This document shows positions 3,518 to 44,626 of a stretch of 64,000 nt of DNA, piece after piece (the first letter of the stretch is position 1; each line of letters starts with the position of its first letter). The translations under genes and the position numbers were made by a program. This DNA comes from a phage. The notes under the pieces were generated by a model. The model saw only the letters and a list, made by a program, of their open reading frames with translations. It was not told the origin of the DNA and searched no databases. Where the stretch lies: the NCBI GenBank assembly GCA_009015555.1, contig GCA_009015555.1_3613.1; one strand, written 5' to 3'.

Positions 3518-6500
3518 GTGTCATCCAATACTGATATCATTGCCCTGTTGAGCAGCGATGCTGACAAGGCAGTTGACCAGATCATCGAAGACTCCAAACG
3601 TCTTCACATCGTGGTCAACGGGACGGGCACCGAGCAGGCTGTTGCAGAGGATGGGAGCTTGCTCCCGTCTGTTCGCAAAGCGCTGATCGACAACCTGTAT
3701 TTCAAAACCCCACCTCTTCCCTGGAGAAACGGTGGGTCTGTCAACGAGTTCAACCAGCTTTACTCCTTCACCGACGTAAGCGGGAACACCACTTGGTGGT
3801 ATGCGCCCGGAGCTACGGTATCAAACCCGGTTGTGATGCGTGACAGCCCGATCAATGACGGCAAGTTCAAGGTTTTCTTGGACAAAACCAACATCGCCGA
3901 TATCTATGCCCCTCTGAACTCTCCGAACTTCGTCGGTAACCCCCGTGTGCCTACCCCGGCCCCTGGCGACAACAGCCAAACCGTCCCGACAACCGGGTGG
4001 GTTCAGTCAGAGATGCAGGACCTGGAAGACCAGATCATTGCCTCTATGAAGGGTGATTTCGAAAACATCACCGTCCGTAACGATGCCGTTCTCAAAGACA
4101 CGTATATCAGCGGTGAGTTCATTGTCACCAGTGATAAGTTGTCCGCTGCCAGCGCCGAAGCAACCTTCCGTCGTATTCGTGTGGTCGGCACCGCAGACAA
4201 TACTGAGATCGCTTTTGAGCAGAACACCGCACCTCCAGCGGGGGCGAGCACAAAGACTAACATCAAGCCGTACACGATGTCAACAGGCATCTTGACGATT
4301 GACCAGTTGAAAGGAAAATCTGCCCAGATTGGTGATGTTGCTGTTGCCACGGACTCCCTGAATGTCGATGGGTACATGCGTGGGGATTACCTGCATCTGG
4401 AAGGTAACAACCGAAACAGCACAACCCGCCCTCAGTTGATCGTTGATGGTATTGCAGAGATCAATACGCTGCGGGTGACTGGAACCATCGAGGGTGTAAA
4501 AGCTGATGTTGATGGCTTGGATATTCATCCTCGTAGTGTTATCATCGACGAAGGTTTGACGGTTGGCAAAGATACCTCCCTGACAGGAAAGCTGACTGTC
4601 GGCGGTACAACCAAGGTGAATAACCTGGAGGTTACTGGAACCCTGTCTGGTGTTGCTATCAGTGTTGACGGTAAAGACATCAAGCCCCGCTCTGTTAACA
4701 CCGGGAACTTGGTTGCTACTGGCAACGTGCAGATCAGTGGGACGACCACTGCAACCGGGAAGATCACAACTCAAGATCTTGAAGTGCTTGGCACACTGAC
4801 AGCTAACCTCGACCTGTCCGGGTCGGATCTGAGTGTTGATAATATCAACGTTGCAGAAACCGCGACAATAAAGGATTTGGTGGTTACCGGAAAAACAACC
4901 GGGGTCAAAGGTGACGTTGATGGAACCTTGATCAAGCCTTCTTCTGTTCAGGCAACGGGCCTTGTGTCAGCAGGTTCATTGTCTACCAATGCAAATGCCT
5001 CTATCGGGGGTAACCTGACGGTGACTGGAGAGTTCCGTCCCGCCAGCATGGAAACAGGTGCAGTTGAGGCAGATAGTCTGGTTGTTAATGGTAACATTTC
5101 CCAGACGACAGGAACAACCTCTGTAGTCAACCTGGTTGTCACAGGAACGACAACTGGCGTAACAGCCGATGTCAATGGTGACGACATTTTGCCTCGCTCC
5201 GTGACTACTACTGCGGGGGTTAAAGTCGGAACCACCCTCGACGTAACTGGAAAGACTACCCTCGGAGATGTTGATTTCACTGGGGTTGTTACCGGGCTTG
5301 AACTTGATCTTTCTCAAAAGAACGTGACAGTTAAGTCAATTGCTGCTGTAGATCCTTCTGCATTTGGGGATGTGACGACAGATAATCTGACCAACAGCGA
5401 GAAGATCATCACTCAAGACATCCAAGTTCTGGGTGATATTCTGGATGCTGCGGGGAATCCTGTCAACACCTTTGATGTTACAGGCAAAGATATTCTGCCA
5501 AACAGTGTTCAATCTGCGACGTTTATTCGCGGAAAAACTCTGGACATCAGTGACGGTTCCACCCTCCGTGGCCCTGTCGAGTTCCGTAACGGGCTGACAG
5601 TAACTCTTGGAGACATCATGTCGCCCCAAGGGAAGGCAACGTTCAACGATGTACAGGTCAATGGTGCATTGACGGACGCTAACGGCAACGTCATCGGCTC
5701 CGTTGAAAGCATCAAGGGCAAGGACATTGAACCACGCTCCGTTGTGGCTACCGTGTCTGTACAGGCCCCTCGTCTCCAATCAACTGGGGATATTTTGGGC
5801 CAGAGCGCGACAATCACCAATAACGTCTCTGCGGGGACCTTGGGTGTTTCCGGGTTGACAAACCTGGCAGAAACTCGTGTGAATGCGAAGCTAACAGGGC
5901 AATCCACAGAGTTCGAAACTCTGCTCCTGAAGCGCGTTGCTGGTCAAGATACACCTCGCTTGGTTGTGCAGGGGGATTCAGATCTCCAGGGGGACCTGAA
6001 CGTCTCGGGGACCATTACCGGGATTGTTGACCTGACGGCTCAAGATATCCGTATGAACAGCCTTGTGCTCGCCGAGGATCTTTCTGCAAGGAATATTACA
6101 GGATCAGGCACGGTTCAGGGCGCTAATGGAATTTTCGGCCAGTCTTCCCAGCCCACCACCCAGTACGGTTTGCAGTCTCTTTCCAGCGCTAAGGTAGATA
6201 AAAACCTCGATGTTGGAGGAAACTTGCGGGTAACTGGGGCCATTACCGGAAGTATGGACTTCACAGGGAAGGATATTACCCCACGGAGTGTCGCGGCGTC
6301 AGCCGGAATCGGGGCCGTGGATATCACGGCATCCGGCACGACAACGACGAAGGACCTTGTGGTCACCGGGACGACAAGTTTTGCGGGAGACAGCGTTTTC
6401 AATGCAGGCCAGGTTAAGTCCAAGTTGTTCACCGTTGACATTGGTACTGATATCACTTCAGGATCGGGGTCTTGGATTCCAGACGGGCTTCAGTCCGTTT

Positions 6501-24591: not shown

Positions 24592-25062
24592 TCAGTCCAC
24601 CTCAACAGGCTCGATGAAGTAGTTCTGGCCCTTCTTGACTTGCATGAAGGTCCCCTCTACCCAAGTACCTGAACCTTGAATACGTGTTTCCGAGATGTCA
24701 TACTTCGTGTTTGGATCACGTTTTCTGTGAAGCAGTTGGAGAATCAACTCCAGACTACTGAAGGAGATCTTGTATTCAAATCCCTCTTTGTCTTCAAAGA
24801 CCGCCACCGCAGAACTCCTTCCTTTCTCTGTGTGAGAAAACTGGAGAGACATCTTGCGGGTTTCGTGCTCTATCTCTTCTACACGTTTGTTTTCCGAACC
24901 GGGCCGGAACATATGAACAAAGTCACAGAGTGGGAATCGGGCAGCATACACCTCTTCTGCTTTTGGTGTAAAAGCAAATCCCTCCCATCCTGTGAACCAC
25001 TTCCCGCCTGACCCGGCTTCCGCCAAGGCAGGGTATGAACGTTTACGAAGTTTTCCCATCAC
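24592..25062 (-). CDS. hypothetical protein
   Basis: 156-aa ORF. Confidence 0.5.
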   Translation of the reverse strand: MMGKLRKRSYPALAEAGSGGKWFTGWEGFAFTPKAEEVYAARFPLCDFVHMFRPGSENKRVEEIEHETRKMSLQFSHTEKGRSSAVAVFEDKEGFEYKISFSSLELILQLLHRKRDPNTKYDISETRIQGSGTWVEGTFMQVKKGQNYFIEPVEVD

Positions 25063-26012
25063 AAACCTCCCGGTAATTTGTATTGATAGATCGTCTTCGA
25101 ACTATAACCAGATAGCCAGAAGAACAAGTCGCCCACCCTTAAACATGGGCAGTGGAACTGGTTTGTTGGGACAGAAGCTGTTGTTTTACTACCTGTCAAG
25201 ATATCGAACTGGTTAAGTACCGTACTGCTTTGTTGGACTGTATATATAACCCCTTTCCATACGCAAGACGGCATATCATAAGGGGTAAATCCCGGGCTTG
25301 TAACTTGTACTGTTGAGATCTGAAGGTTTGTCAAATCCACACGGAGGACATCCAGATATGGAGAGCCGTCACCCTCGCTTGTGTTCTTTATTGAACCCCC
25401 TCCGGTTATATAAACAAACCCGCCCATCAAAGTGGCGTCCCCACCAGACACCCCGTGAGAAAAAGCACCGGAAAGAACTACGTCTTCCCAAGCCAAGCCA
25501 TCTATCCGGCACCTGCGGATTGCATTGGATGAAAACCCGGTGGACTTGTAGACATTGGCAATAGAGTACACGTAATCGTCATCTACGTAAATAGCTCCAT
25601 AATCATAAGGCAAGGCGGGATAAGTTTTGTACACACCCGTCTCCAAGTTCAGGGATTCGATTACCCCTGTCTTTGTCCTGCCTTGTCCGAAGTAAAGAAC
25701 TCCCTTATGGAGATAACTGGCGGTATTCAACGGTATGGTTCTTCCAGCCACACCAGGGACCATACCTGAGTATGCCATGTCGCTCACATTGAAGGTGTGC
25801 AAACCATCTGCTTTCAGGACATAGATTTTTCCATTCCAATACCCGATCGCGACGGCTGCTGTGCTGGTAGGAGAAGAGCCTCCCAAAGTTCCACCACGGG
25901 ATTGGCCCGGCATCATGGCGGCTGATGCCGACACTAATGCCTCGTCAGCATTAACGTCATCCATGTCCACAGGCACCCCTTTCTTCCCTCCTGCCATTAA
26001 TAACTCGATCAT
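25059..26012 (-). CDS. MQEML-family-related protein (beta-rich, Gly-rich)
   Basis: N-terminus MIELLMAGGKKG resembles the MQEML..GG family. Confidence 0.55.
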   Translation of the reverse strand: MIELLMAGGKKGVPVDMDDVNADEALVSASAAMMPGQSRGGTLGGSSPTSTAAVAIGYWNGKIYVLKADGLHTFNVSDMAYSGMVPGVAGRTIPLNTASYLHKGVLYFGQGRTKTGVIESLNLETGVYKTYPALPYDYGAIYVDDDYVYSIANVYKSTGFSSNAIRRCRIDGLAWEDVVLSGAFSHGVSGGDATLMGGFVYITGGGSIKNTSEGDGSPYLDVLRVDLTNLQISTVQVTSPGFTPYDMPSCVWKGVIYTVQQSSTVLNQFDILTGSKTTASVPTNQFHCPCLRVGDLFFWLSGYSSKTIYQYKLPGGL

Positions 26013-26203
26013 TATTCCTCCACCAACTCGCCCGCGCCGTTGTACCGAGTGTTCCAGTCCCTCAGCACGGAATCGTACCCGTACTCAGATCTCTTTTCTG
26101 CCCCGCACCAGCCGCAGGTTATTACGTGCCTGTCTTGATAATGGGTATCTTCCCAGTAATCAGGTTGCTTACCACAGAAAGGGCATGGTTTAATATCAGT
26201 CAT
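26012..26203 (-). CDS. Lar-family restriction-alleviation-like zinc ribbon
   Basis: MTDIKPCPFCG ... CGWCG matches the Lar family signature (KPCPFCG). Confidence 0.5.
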   Translation of the reverse strand: MTDIKPCPFCGKQPDYWEDTHYQDRHVITCGWCGAEKRSEYGYDSVLRDWNTRYNGAGELVEE

Positions 26204-26570
26204 CGGACCACTCCTTGTCGTACCCGGCATCTTCACGGGTCATAGCGATATGCGGGGCATCGCACCCGTCATACCAGTTATCGACAAACATTTTCTCGGA
26301 CCCTTCTACGATGAACAGGCCCGCCTGCCGTAATTCCTCTTGCAGGTTGCCAAACATATTATCGTTCTGGTCGAAGATCACCAGGCCTGCATCATACGAC
26401 GGTCCGTCTTCATGACGGTAAACGACCATATCACCACTGTAAGTGATCTTCAGCTTGGAATCGATCTCGTCAAGCCTGTCGGAAACCTCTTGCCAAGAAT
26501 CCGTGTGCAGATTGCCCAGCGGAGGGTCTAACAGTGCAATGACGCCCACGGTTACACGTTGCTCGCTCAT
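26196..26570 (-). CDS. hypothetical acidic protein
   Basis: 124-aa ORF. Confidence 0.5.
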   Translation of the reverse strand: MSEQRVTVGVIALLDPPLGNLHTDSWQEVSDRLDEIDSKLKITYSGDMVVYRHEDGPSYDAGLVIFDQNDNMFGNLQEELRQAGLFIVEGSEKMFVDNWYDGCDAPHIAMTREDAGYDKEWSDD

Positions 26571-26585
26571 GAATACTCCTCTCTA

Positions 26586-27239
26586 TTAATCAAGAACAAA
26601 TGGTGCCGTCGGCACTGAGAAATTACCGTCGTAACGGGCCACCTTGCTGATACGGAATTGGTCAAGCCCACCAAACATAGTTTGTTCGCCGAAGCCGATT
26701 CTTGCAAAACGGCTTACGTCACTCCACCCTCCGGAAGCAAAGGACGTGGTGGTTGGTGCCACTTTACCGTTCAGATATAACTTCGTGACTCCCCCTTTGC
26801 TCACAATAGCCACATGTGTCCAGTTGGAAAGAGGCCAGTAGTTGGTACTAAAGCTCAAATAATTCTTCTGGTCCTGAAGATAAACCACACTTTGGTAAAC
26901 CTTGAGGCAACTCTGAGTACCTGTCCCAAAATACATCCACCAGGAAGAGGCAACTGAAGAGTTTCTTGACCAAAATTCGATAGTGAACTCGTCCTCTGGT
27001 TTGAAGACGAGATCTGTTTTCTCTGTCGCCATCATCTCAAAATAGCTGGCAGTGTTAGTACAGTCAAAGTATTTGTTGTTGAATTTTCCGTAACTTCCGG
27101 TGCCTACTGTTGCTACTTTTGAAAATTGCCGGGTAGGCTTGGCAACATCAATACCTCCCTTGTCTGCTTGCAGGAGAAGGAGAGTTTTATCTCCCTTCAT
27201 GCCGCCGCCTGCACCAGCCGCCAATAGGATTTCCTGCAC
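26586..27239 (-). CDS. MQEML-family paralog 3; LamG/concanavalin-A-like
   Basis: N-terminus MQEILLAAGAGGG; LamG-like segment SNWTHVAIVSKGGVTKLYLNG. Confidence 0.6.
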   Translation of the reverse strand: MQEILLAAGAGGGMKGDKTLLLLQADKGGIDVAKPTRQFSKVATVGTGSYGKFNNKYFDCTNTASYFEMMATEKTDLVFKPEDEFTIEFWSRNSSVASSWWMYFGTGTQSCLKVYQSVVYLQDQKNYLSFSTNYWPLSNWTHVAIVSKGGVTKLYLNGKVAPTTTSFASGGWSDVSRFARIGFGEQTMFGGLDQFRISKVARYDGNFSVPTAPFVLD

Positions 27240-27249
27240 TTTTTACTCC

Positions 27250-27921
27250 TTAATGATTGAAGTGGTAAACAGCCCGGGCAAACCCCTCTGGGGTCAGCGA
27301 TCGTAGCTGTTTGGTCCTCTCCGACTTACCACCTAAAAACTTCCAGCCCCAGAAGCAGCCTATATGAGGCACAGGCTTCTTGTCAGGCATCACAAAGCCA
27401 TTCCCTACCCAGAGGCAAGTTTTCTTTGTGTAGGCGTTCCTGTACGGCATTTTTGGGTGGTACGAGCCTTCAATCTGACTCAAGTACCCTCCATACTCGT
27501 AAGGGTCGAAATAATGATCCGGCTTGCGCCACAGCGTACTCATCTTACCCACCGGGTTCTCGACCATCCAAGGACAGCCAAAAACGTTAGCAACACGCTC
27601 TACCATTTTAGCATTATCTATCGACTCCATCAACTCCGATTTCGTCCGGGTATGCTTGGCCCCGGCTACAGACAGGTTGGTGCAGCTTGGAAATGCAAAG
27701 ATAATGTCCGGCTTCGGAATACCCGCTTTGGCAACGAAGGCTTCGAAGTCTTCATCGATCCAACAATTCACATACTGGATGTTGGGGTGCTCCCGGCGCA
27801 GTTCATACTGACCATGATCAGCGGTGTCTGCATTAAAGCAGAACACCTTCCAACCATTCAGGGCGTACTCATACCCCATGAAACCAGACCCATCAAACAG
27901 GCTCCAGACGACTTTAGACAT
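27250..27921 (-). CDS. putative divergent DNA (cytosine-5) methyltransferase-like protein
   Basis: Motif I-like LFDGSGFMG, PSC in place of PCQ (motif IV), ENPVG (motif VI). By-eye only. Confidence 0.45.
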   Translation of the reverse strand: MSKVVWSLFDGSGFMGYEYALNGWKVFCFNADTADHGQYELRREHPNIQYVNCWIDEDFEAFVAKAGIPKPDIIFAFPSCTNLSVAGAKHTRTKSELMESIDNAKMVERVANVFGCPWMVENPVGKMSTLWRKPDHYFDPYEYGGYLSQIEGSYHPKMPYRNAYTKKTCLWVGNGFVMPDKKPVPHIGCFWGWKFLGGKSERTKQLRSLTPEGFARAVYHFNH

Positions 27922-44109: not shown

Positions 44110-44626
44110 AGTCCCCTTTCGCATAACGTGGGCCACGAAGTTCAAGGCCCGTCTTATCCAGTGAATGTGGGGATATCATGCCATTACTGTTCCAGAACTT
44201 CAAGTCTTTTTTCACCTGCTCCGCCTTTCGGTCCACGAAAGCCGCAACGATGTCGGGGTTTGTCTTCGGCATTGCCCGGTACACAGCACTGCGGGCATTT
44301 TCAAACTGGTCCTCGATAATCTTCAACTGATCCATCATTTCCAGTTCGTCCATTGCCTCTTTACACACGCAGCAATGACCTTTGGAGAAATACTCCCGGC
44401 TATCCTTGAAGTGGTCCCAACGCTCACCTTGGATAGGGAGGGCCATACGCCCACAGTAAGCACAGACGTGGGTAGATTTGTCAGACAGGACGGTGGTAGG
44501 GCGGATGCCTTCCTTTGTACTGTTCCAGCCGTAATGGTGACCTTCCCTGCCATACATATAAGAGAAGAATTTATAGGCGCGTTCATCGACGTGCTCTTCG
44601 TCACGATTTTTGGTACGTTCGAACAT
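44099..44626 (-). CDS. Cys-rich hypothetical protein (first gene of the leftward block)
   Basis: AAGAGGAA RBS; promoter upstream; CAYCG ... HCCVCK. Confidence 0.55.
   Translation of the reverse strand: MFERTKNRDEEHVDERAYKFFSYMYGREGHHYGWNSTKEGIRPTTVLSDKSTHVCAYCGRMALPIQGERWDHFKDSREYFSKGHCCVCKEAMDELEMMDQLKIIEDQFENARSAVYRAMPKTNPDIVAAFVDRKAEQVKKDLKFWNSNGMISPHSLDKTGLELRGPRYAKGDYDE

Follow-up and report, generated by a model that had tools for sequence, protein, structure and literature searches.

A 64,000-nucleotide stretch of phage DNA (contig GCA_009015555.1_3613.1 of NCBI GenBank assembly GCA_009015555.1, hereafter the window) was found to carry a gene at 27250-27921 for a compact, predicted Dcm-like DNA cytosine-5 (C5) methyltransferase of family phrog_757 and, at 26012-26203, a gene for a small zinc-ribbon protein of the Lar family. 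We consider it likely that the two are independent accessory genes of a phage resembling Cronobacter phage CR3, and we infer the activity of the first and the roles of both. An earlier note, made from the sequence letters, had described these two open reading frames (ORFs) as a putative anti-restriction pair. Both ORFs are present and the spacing of about 1 kb that it gave between them holds; their strand, which it did not give, is the minus strand.

The source of the window is a CR3-like myovirus (Certrevirus, Vequintavirinae), and the 4-kb region that was compared shared 96.4% nucleotide identity with Cronobacter phages CR3, CR8 and PBES 02. Both genes are already known, being annotated in these near-identical phages. 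In the CR3 RefSeq record gp067 is named 'DNA methyltransferase' and gp064 'Lar-like restriction alleviation protein', while the GenBank name of the gp067 counterpart in PBES 02 is 'putative DNA methylase 1'. A paper on Certrevirus had also described the cytosine methylase by HHpred and reported that it is missing from phages phiTE, DU_PP_I and DU_PP_IV (PMC7344957).

The methylase ORF extends mechanically to 28020, and the favoured start was the ATG at 27921, which has a Shine-Dalgarno site, GAGG, 6 nucleotides upstream, overlaps the stop codon of the upstream gene and agrees with the start of CR3 gp067. The resulting protein of 223 amino acids (aa) matched the phrog_757 profile 'DNA methyltransferase' over its full length (residues 1-222, E 7.9e-85), and 4,588 homologues were recovered at E <= 1e-3 from a large protein collection, several of them named 'DNA cytosine methyltransferase' by NCBI. 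Clustering at 50% identity left 1,806 representatives, mostly of 200-260 aa. Matches were present in 1,512 phage records and spanned at least 80% of the query in 1,397 of these, the carriers including Drexlerviridae, Dhillonvirus and Vequintavirinae with Escherichia, Klebsiella, Salmonella and other hosts.

A confident AlphaFold2 model built from 24 family sequences (predicted local distance difference test score, pLDDT, 83.4; predicted template modelling score, pTM, 0.84) had its strands ordered as in class I methyltransferases. When this model was compared with the PDB by Foldseek the best matches were DNMT3A, DNMT3B and DNMT1, followed by the prophage methyltransferase 3g7u and M.HaeIII, and M.HhaI was also among the best structural matches. 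As modelled, the 223-aa protein has the fold of a C5-methyltransferase catalytic domain. Structure prediction, which the earlier note had proposed as a check for a methyltransferase fold, therefore returned one of the C5 type, and the term 'divergent' that it had used proved apt, as the fold is present in a protein which falls below the PF00145 threshold. The profile search that it had also proposed gave a divided answer, in that the Lar profiles passed and phrog_757 was matched, while PF00145 and NCBIfam missed the methylase. Only 2 of 100 diverse family members touched PF00145 at all (E 0.004).

To place the catalytic motifs the family was aligned by hhalign with M.HhaI (the sequence used is identical to PDB 10mh), both as a single sequence and with 120 M.HhaI homologues, which were all close isoschizomers of 71-80% identity and so contributed little. 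Only motifs I, IV and VI were aligned, with low probability. The FDGSG, PSC (within FPSCT) and ENPVG blocks that had been picked out in the earlier note were all located, FDGSG at residues 9-13, FPSCT at 77-81 and ENPVG at 121-125, but its reading of PSC as a replacement for PCQ was off by one in register. The alignment pairs FAFPSCTNLSVAG with CAGFPCQAFSISG of M.HhaI, so that FPSC aligns with GFPC; Cys80 takes the position of the catalytic Cys81, with Ser79 at that of Pro80 and Thr81 at that of Gln82. By this alignment the presumed nucleophile Cys80 is retained and only the residues flanking it differ.

Conservation was examined in 244 family members. Cys80 was present in 242 of these, Glu121 in all 244, Asn122 in 239, Pro123 in 243, Lys166 in 240, Thr168 in 238 and Arg207 in 237. 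Position 79 varied, with Pro in 105 members, Asp in 68, Ser in 48, Glu in 11 and Val in 8. In the subclade of the window protein (at least 58% identity) Asp was found at this position 65 times and Ser 46 times, and Pro only 7 times; the Ser, Asp and Pro classes of this subclade all retain every other conserved residue. A Ser/Pro swap at position 79 was observed between two proteins that are 88% identical (P0018 and P0028). Near the C-terminus, six positions of a conserved helix (R207, S208, T210, P211, G213 and A217) are each kept in more than 90% of members, and by eye this helix, RSLTPxGFARAV, resembles both motif IX (R-x-L-T-x-R-E-x-A-R) and motif X of DNMT3A (G-R-S-W-S-V-P-V-I-R-H-L-F).

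The usual form of motif I across the wider family is F-D-x-T-G and not F-x-G-x-G, and the residue that ends strand beta2 is split between Asn (124) and Asp (117). The loops predicted to bind S-adenosylmethionine (AdoMet) in this family thus deviate from the textbook motifs of C5-methyltransferases.

Experimental support comes from two relatives. Escape mutants of the Drexlerviridae phage K42 led to a 711-bp gene, encoding K42 Dcm, as the trigger of retron Ec86 (bioRxiv 10.1101/2023.08.16.553469). In the same preprint expression of K42 Dcm raised 5-methylcytosine (5mC) in the multicopy single-stranded DNA (msDNA) of the retron as measured by liquid chromatography-mass spectrometry, while no rise was seen with a C82A/E128A/K175A/K176A mutant; alteration of a CCTGG site in the msDNA stem-loop abolished Ec86 defence, and K175/K176 were assigned to substrate binding by superposition on DNMT3A. 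We compared K42 Dcm through a stand-in, the protein of the 711-bp methyltransferase gene of Hanrivervirus G29-2, which has Cys, Glu, Lys and Lys at exactly positions 82, 128, 175 and 176 as K42 Dcm does. It shares 48% identity with the window protein, in which Cys80, Glu121, Lys166 and Lys167 align with the four residues. The second relative is gp52 of Pantoea phage AAS23, in which BLASTP found no conserved domain and HHpred matched C5-methyltransferases with 99.7% probability; from digests with a panel of restriction enzymes, EcoRII among them, AAS23 DNA was reported to carry Dcm methylation (PMC8004638). The gp52 protein is 52% identical to the window protein and of the same length class. 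We had considered gp52 as a possible tested member without Pro-Cys and rejected it, as it is of the PPC type like K42 Dcm and supports activity of the family and not of the Ser variant. A further retron paper (PMC12548924) proved irrelevant to cytosine methylation.

From this analysis the most probable reading is that the methylase would be an orphan phage Dcm-like enzyme which writes 5mC on replicating phage DNA. AdoMet would be bound at the FDGSG loop, Cys80 would attack C6 of a flipped-out cytosine, Glu121 of the ENP motif would protonate N3, and Lys166 and Lys167 would stand in for the arginines of motif VIII. Transfer of the methyl group to C5 would then leave replicated phage (and host) DNA with 5mC. 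As a likely benefit, cognate type II restriction enzymes would be kept from the modified sites; the likely cost is that the methylase would act as a trigger for defence of the retron Ec86 type. By analogy with the relatives the target site may be CCWGG, which is not established for the subclade of the window. The weakest step in the scheme, proposed by homology alone, is that type I restriction may be alleviated by the Lar-like protein in the manner of Rac Lar. An anti-restriction role is plausible for each of the two genes, putatively in both cases.

We have to concede that a number of observations weigh against this reading. The 223-aa protein had no match in Pfam or NCBIfam, PF00145 being absent even at E <= 1, and no significant match came from sequence searches of the PDB, whether with the single sequence or with two family profiles (the top match, DNMT2 at E 0.24, spanned motifs I-IV only). 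Motifs VIII-X could not be mapped reliably, and the alignment to M.HhaI is unreliable past motif VI. Both relatives with experimental support are of the PPC type, and no assayed member of the Ser/Asp-before-Cys, FWGWK subclade to which the window protein belongs was found in the literature. The CCWGG specificity of K42 Dcm was itself inferred from msDNA mutants and not mapped (bioRxiv 10.1101/2023.08.16.553469). It is not transferable to the window protein, because the variable segment differs between subclades, and the CCWGG count in the window (129 observed, 129.5 expected from base composition) is uninformative. Escherichia coli Vequintavirinae, which carry the methylase family, have been described as 'exceptionally susceptible' to restriction-modification systems and in Drexlerviridae the presence of methyltransferase genes was not linked in any simple way to resistance to restriction, so that any anti-restriction benefit would be narrow. 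Finally, the founding member of the Lar family, Rac Lar/RalR, has also been characterised as a non-specific deoxyribonuclease (DNase) toxin, which makes 'restriction alleviation' insecure for the family.

The earlier note had offered the Ser residue as a sign of altered chemistry or of a non-catalytic decoy, and a transfer of groups other than methyl, as by the carboxymethyltransferase CmoX, would be one form of this. The canonical Pro-Cys dipeptide is indeed missing, PF00145 was missed and the literature, as far as found, has no assayed member of the Ser/Asp subclade, but among close relatives all 46 of the Ser type and all 65 of the Asp type retain Cys80 and the other presumed catalytic residues without change, which would not be expected of a decoy. 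Since Cys80, Glu121/Asn122 and the Lys-Lys pair are near-invariant while position 79 varies, with Ser, Asp and Pro interchanging between close relatives such as the P0018/P0028 pair, a decoy is disfavoured; the pattern argues that position 79 is a tolerant site beside a constrained catalytic residue and that Ser is a neutral family variant. In M.EcoRII, replacement of the Pro of the ProCys motif with Ser or Ala is said to reduce activity and not to abolish it. PPC-type members that are 48-52% identical to the window protein make 5mC, and CmoX scores no better than ordinary methyltransferases. The Cx-SAM cofactor of CmoX comes from a phage-encoded CmoA, typically found beside CmoX and CmoY in phage genomes according to the CmoX paper (PMC12783734). 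No Pfam family matching CmoA or CmoY was found in the neighbours of the methylase gene, and, at annotation level only, no CmoA/CmoY, TET/JBP dioxygenase or glycosyltransferase is listed for CR3 between 1 and 109 kb, a span that includes the window. A hypermodification pathway built on such enzymes was rejected on the same ground. We regard the decoy or altered chemistry as highly improbable. That the methyltransferase is active but recognizes a site other than CCWGG, or has relaxed specificity, is a much more serious possibility, which falls somewhat short of being probable. The segment between strand beta7 and the C-terminal helices, MPDKKPVPHIGCFWGWKFLGGKS in the window protein and IPPRATIIPKDGDKDNPGWAKTGGKS in the K42-like protein, differs between subclades (window type …HIGCFWGWKFLGGKS; K42/AAS23 type …DKDNPGWAKTGGKS), and at about 30 residues it is far below the size of a canonical target-recognition domain. 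Against this stand the catalytic loop and its flanking residues, which are conserved across subclades, and the enterobacterial hosts of such phages, in which Dcm/CCWGG methylation is common. It is unlikely that the Ser/Asp subclade, with an FWGWK mini recognition segment of its own, might depart from the PPC-type Dcm in having a new or relaxed target, a preference for single-stranded DNA or hairpins or, least likely, a non-methyl transfer, and that the family of about 220 aa which is invisible to Pfam would be a minimal C5-methyltransferase lacking a conventional target-recognition domain.

On the preferred reading of an orphan Dcm-like methylase, Ser-Cys for Pro-Cys would be ordinary variation in a very large phage methyltransferase family that is not covered by Pfam, and the finding, though real, is ordinary and matters little beyond correct annotation. 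One practical point is that retron Ec86 is triggered by a 5mC-writing member of a family found in about 1,500 phage records, so that carriage may expose a phage to Ec86, which would be relevant to the choice or engineering of therapeutic phages.

The Lar-like ORF reaches a GTG at 26236 mechanically, and we favoured the ATG at 26203, which has a Shine-Dalgarno site, AAGGAG, 7 nucleotides upstream, overlaps the stop codon of the upstream gene (ATGACTGA) and is the start used in CR3. Its translation, MTDIKPCPFCGKQPDYWEDTHYQDRHVITCGWCGAEKRSEYGYDSVLRDWNTRYNGAGELVEE, has cysteine residues at positions 7, 10, 30 and 33. The protein scored above the curated cut-offs of PF14354 (E 1.4e-10, 41.7 bits, cut-off 28.6) and TIGR03655 (E 4e-13, 49.4 bits, cut-off 39.6) and matched phrog_38103 at E 8e-27, which confirms the assignment to the Lar family made in the earlier note; by these curated profile thresholds the 63-aa protein is a family member. 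These matches, like those of the methylase, lie well outside what chance would give. BLASTP with RalR/Lar of the Rac prophage, which itself matches PF14354, gave 32% identity over 56 aa with both CxxC knuckles aligned. No further Lar-like zinc ribbons were found in the window. A 186-aa ORF holds a zinc-ribbon-like CxxC...CxxC motif (CAYCG ... CCVCK) at 44363-44464 on the minus strand and a cysteine-rich pattern was matched at 5060-5152, neither of them Lar-like.

Judged from the sequence, restriction alleviation would be the likeliest role of the Lar-like protein, a tentative assignment that we hold with low confidence. Rac Lar was reportedly found by King and Murray in 1995 to alleviate EcoKI restriction. 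The family is, however, open to another interpretation, namely that the window protein is a RalR-type DNase, or a small zinc ribbon with an unrelated early function, and not a restriction alleviator, and we take this to be quite possible too. Rac Lar/RalR is annotated in E. coli K-12 as 'endodeoxyribonuclease toxin RalR' and was reported, together with its antisense RNA antitoxin, as a non-specific DNase (PMC4041452), the window protein shares only the 32% identity given above with it, and related phages hold different small Cys-containing proteins in the Lar slot. The profile matches speak the other way, since the family whose curated thresholds they exceed takes its name from restriction alleviation. 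A Lar homologue of phage Bas63 is conditionally important, in a pattern that its authors tentatively link to type IV restriction; it belongs to a different Lar subgroup and was absent from the tblastn matches of the window protein. The EcoSal review of restriction-modification describes lambda Ral, and the whole word 'Lar' was not found in it.

That the two genes form an anti-restriction module, in which for example the methylase would modify phage DNA and the Lar-like protein would shield it from type I or from methyl-dependent type IV restriction, is very unlikely. They lie within about 1.9 kb in the same leftward transcription unit, and the Bas63 homologue is conditionally important on hosts with type IV systems, but two unrelated genes stand between them and their presence is uncoupled across Certrevirus, which means that the pair proposed in the earlier note is not supported as a conserved one. 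Phage phiTE lacks the cytosine methylase, and its Lar-like protein, of 133 aa, is encoded in a different neighbourhood. The methylase block is retained in Klebsiella phage KaOmega and in Enterobacter phages of the F1M1E type, with nucleotide similarity ending exactly at the Lar gene. In Vequintavirus AlexBoehm a 'Dcm-like C5 cytosine methyltransferase' adjoins the primase/helicase gene, and no gene named Lar-like was found in the annotated stretch. The 121 phage records in which orthologues of the Lar-like gene were observed come from Certrevirus of Cronobacter and Pectobacterium and, at about 32% identity, from many Vibrio phages; by organism name these overlap with the 1,512 methylase records in 6 Cronobacter records (CR3, CR8, PBES 02) and possibly in one Enterobacter and one Salmonella record.

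Some further observations were made on the two genes in these relatives. KaOmega has an unrelated 67-aa protein, OMEGA_66 (L008 2305-2508), in the Lar slot with cysteine pairs of its own (CGFNGC ... CNVC), and small cysteine-rich proteins appear to be exchanged at this slot. The phiTE protein, phiTE_014 (L009 3501-3902), consists of a 58-aa zinc-ribbon N-terminus that is 69% identical to the window protein and a C-terminal extension of about 75 aa; phiTE_014 may be a fusion, or else the protein of the CR3 type may have been truncated. In Pectobacterium phage PcCB7V (MW367417.1, 53123-53215) a gene annotated as 'N-type ATP pyrophosphatase' overlies a 31-residue match of 84% identity to the C-terminal end only of the methylase, and this match may be the remnant of a methylase that was lost or replaced in a Pectobacterium certrevirus.

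The positions of the two genes, of their motifs and of the two genes between them are collected in Table 1.

Table 1. Features of the window discussed in the text, with positions counted from the first nucleotide of the window
Feature	Position	Strand	Basis
Lar-family zinc-ribbon protein, 63 aa, CR3 gp064 orthologue	26012..26203	-	PF14354, TIGR03655, phrog_38103
Zinc knuckle 2, CGWC (Cys30, Cys33)	26105..26116	-	Translation; aligns with CNGC of Rac RalR
Zinc knuckle 1, CPFC (Cys7, Cys10)	26174..26185	-	Translation; aligns with KPCPFCG of Rac RalR
Intervening gene, 124 aa, CR3 gp065 homologue	26196..26570	-	phrog_10749 (unknown function); context only
Intervening gene, concanavalin A-like/LamG domain, CR3 gp066 homologue	26586..27239	-	PF13385 E 1.6e-10; phrog_3545; context only
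Compact Dcm-like DNA cytosine-5 methyltransferase (predicted), 223 aa, CR3 gp067 orthologue	27250..27921	-	phrog_757; fold
C-terminal helix RSLTPEGFARAV, conserved, resembling motif IX or X	27268..27303	-	Conservation; helix 209-222 in model
Lys166-Lys167 before strand beta7, motif VIII position	27421..27426	-	Correspond to K175/K176 of K42 Dcm
Motif VI, ENPVG, residues 121-125 (Glu121-Asn122)	27547..27561	-	Aligned with ENV of M.HhaI; Glu121 corresponds to Glu128 of K42 Dcm
Motif IV, FPSCT, residues 77-81; presumed catalytic Cys80 (codon 27682-27684), Ser79 for the usual Pro	27679..27693	-	hhalign with GFPC of M.HhaI
Motif I, FDGSG, residues 9-13, AdoMet-binding loop (presumed) after strand beta1	27883..27897	-	Aligned with FAGLG of M.HhaI; D10 and G13 family-conserved

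All ORFs of the region are on the minus strand, and both genes lie in the leftward replication region (early/middle) between the DNA polymerase and primase/helicase genes. The 124-aa intervening protein had zero Pfam families above threshold. Its neighbour with the LamG domain (204-217 aa) has PHROG matches that are parts of very large virion or baseplate proteins, and a lectin-like domain is unexpected among early/middle genes. Immediately downstream of the Lar-like gene, at 25059-26012 on the minus strand, is a gene for a 317-aa phrog_9022 protein with weak Kelch/beta-propeller matches (E 0.004-0.02), which is missing from the syntenic region of KaOmega. Outside the window, CR3 has a second annotated 'DNA methyltransferase', gp003 of 191 aa (NC_017974.1, 3100-3675), in the head-gene region with the portal gene on one side and the hypothetical-protein gene gp004 on the other. 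The CB7 paper suggests that an N6-adenine (Dam-type) methylase is also found in the genus Certrevirus.

When compared with the canonical C5-methyltransferases of PF00145 (M.HhaI, E. coli Dcm, DNMT3A/B) the window family shares the FxGxG of motif I, a Cys after strand beta4 and the Glu-Asn of motif VI, but is about 100 residues shorter than M.HhaI and the smallest well-known enzymes and has no recognisable large target-recognition domain, the place of which is taken by about 30 variable residues after strand beta7. It has Ser, Asp or Pro before the Cys and Thr instead of Gln after it, and ENP in place of ENV, where Glu and Asn are kept and a Pro is inserted or substituted before the Val. The arginines of QxRxR in motif VIII are missing, with Y-T-K-K-T at the start of strand beta7 putting Lys-Lys in their place, and, as far as the alignment could be followed, one conserved C-terminal motif, the helix RSLTPxGFARAV, stands where motifs IX and X would be separate; no absence of motif X is claimed. 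The Dcm of the K42/KarlJaspers type has the same family and architecture (236 aa against 223 aa, with the 48% identity extending over the full length) and differs in FPPCT for FPSCT and in the segment of about 30 residues before the C-terminal helices; the activity that was measured is that of K42. AAS23 gp52 differs in being of the PPC type, and the digest evidence for it cannot alone tell phage Dcm activity from that of the host. CmoX (PDB 8yf3; PMC12783734) is larger, at 333 aa, works with CmoA and usually has CmoY near, and nothing specific is shared with it beyond the fold.

Among known Lar proteins, Rac Lar/RalR (E. coli K-12 b1348) resembles the window protein in length (64 aa against 63 aa), in the N-terminal KPCPFCG, the second CxxC, a WN(K/T)R motif and the PF14354 match; the window protein is nevertheless divergent, and RalR has an antisense RNA partner, RalA, together with its reported DNase activity. 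The closest known counterparts are CR3 gp067 and gp064, which are essentially the same genes in the same order and on the same strand with few substitutions only, the methylase being 99.6% identical to CR3 gp067 and to 'putative DNA methylase 1' of PBES 02 and the Lar-like protein 100% identical to those of CR3 and CR8.

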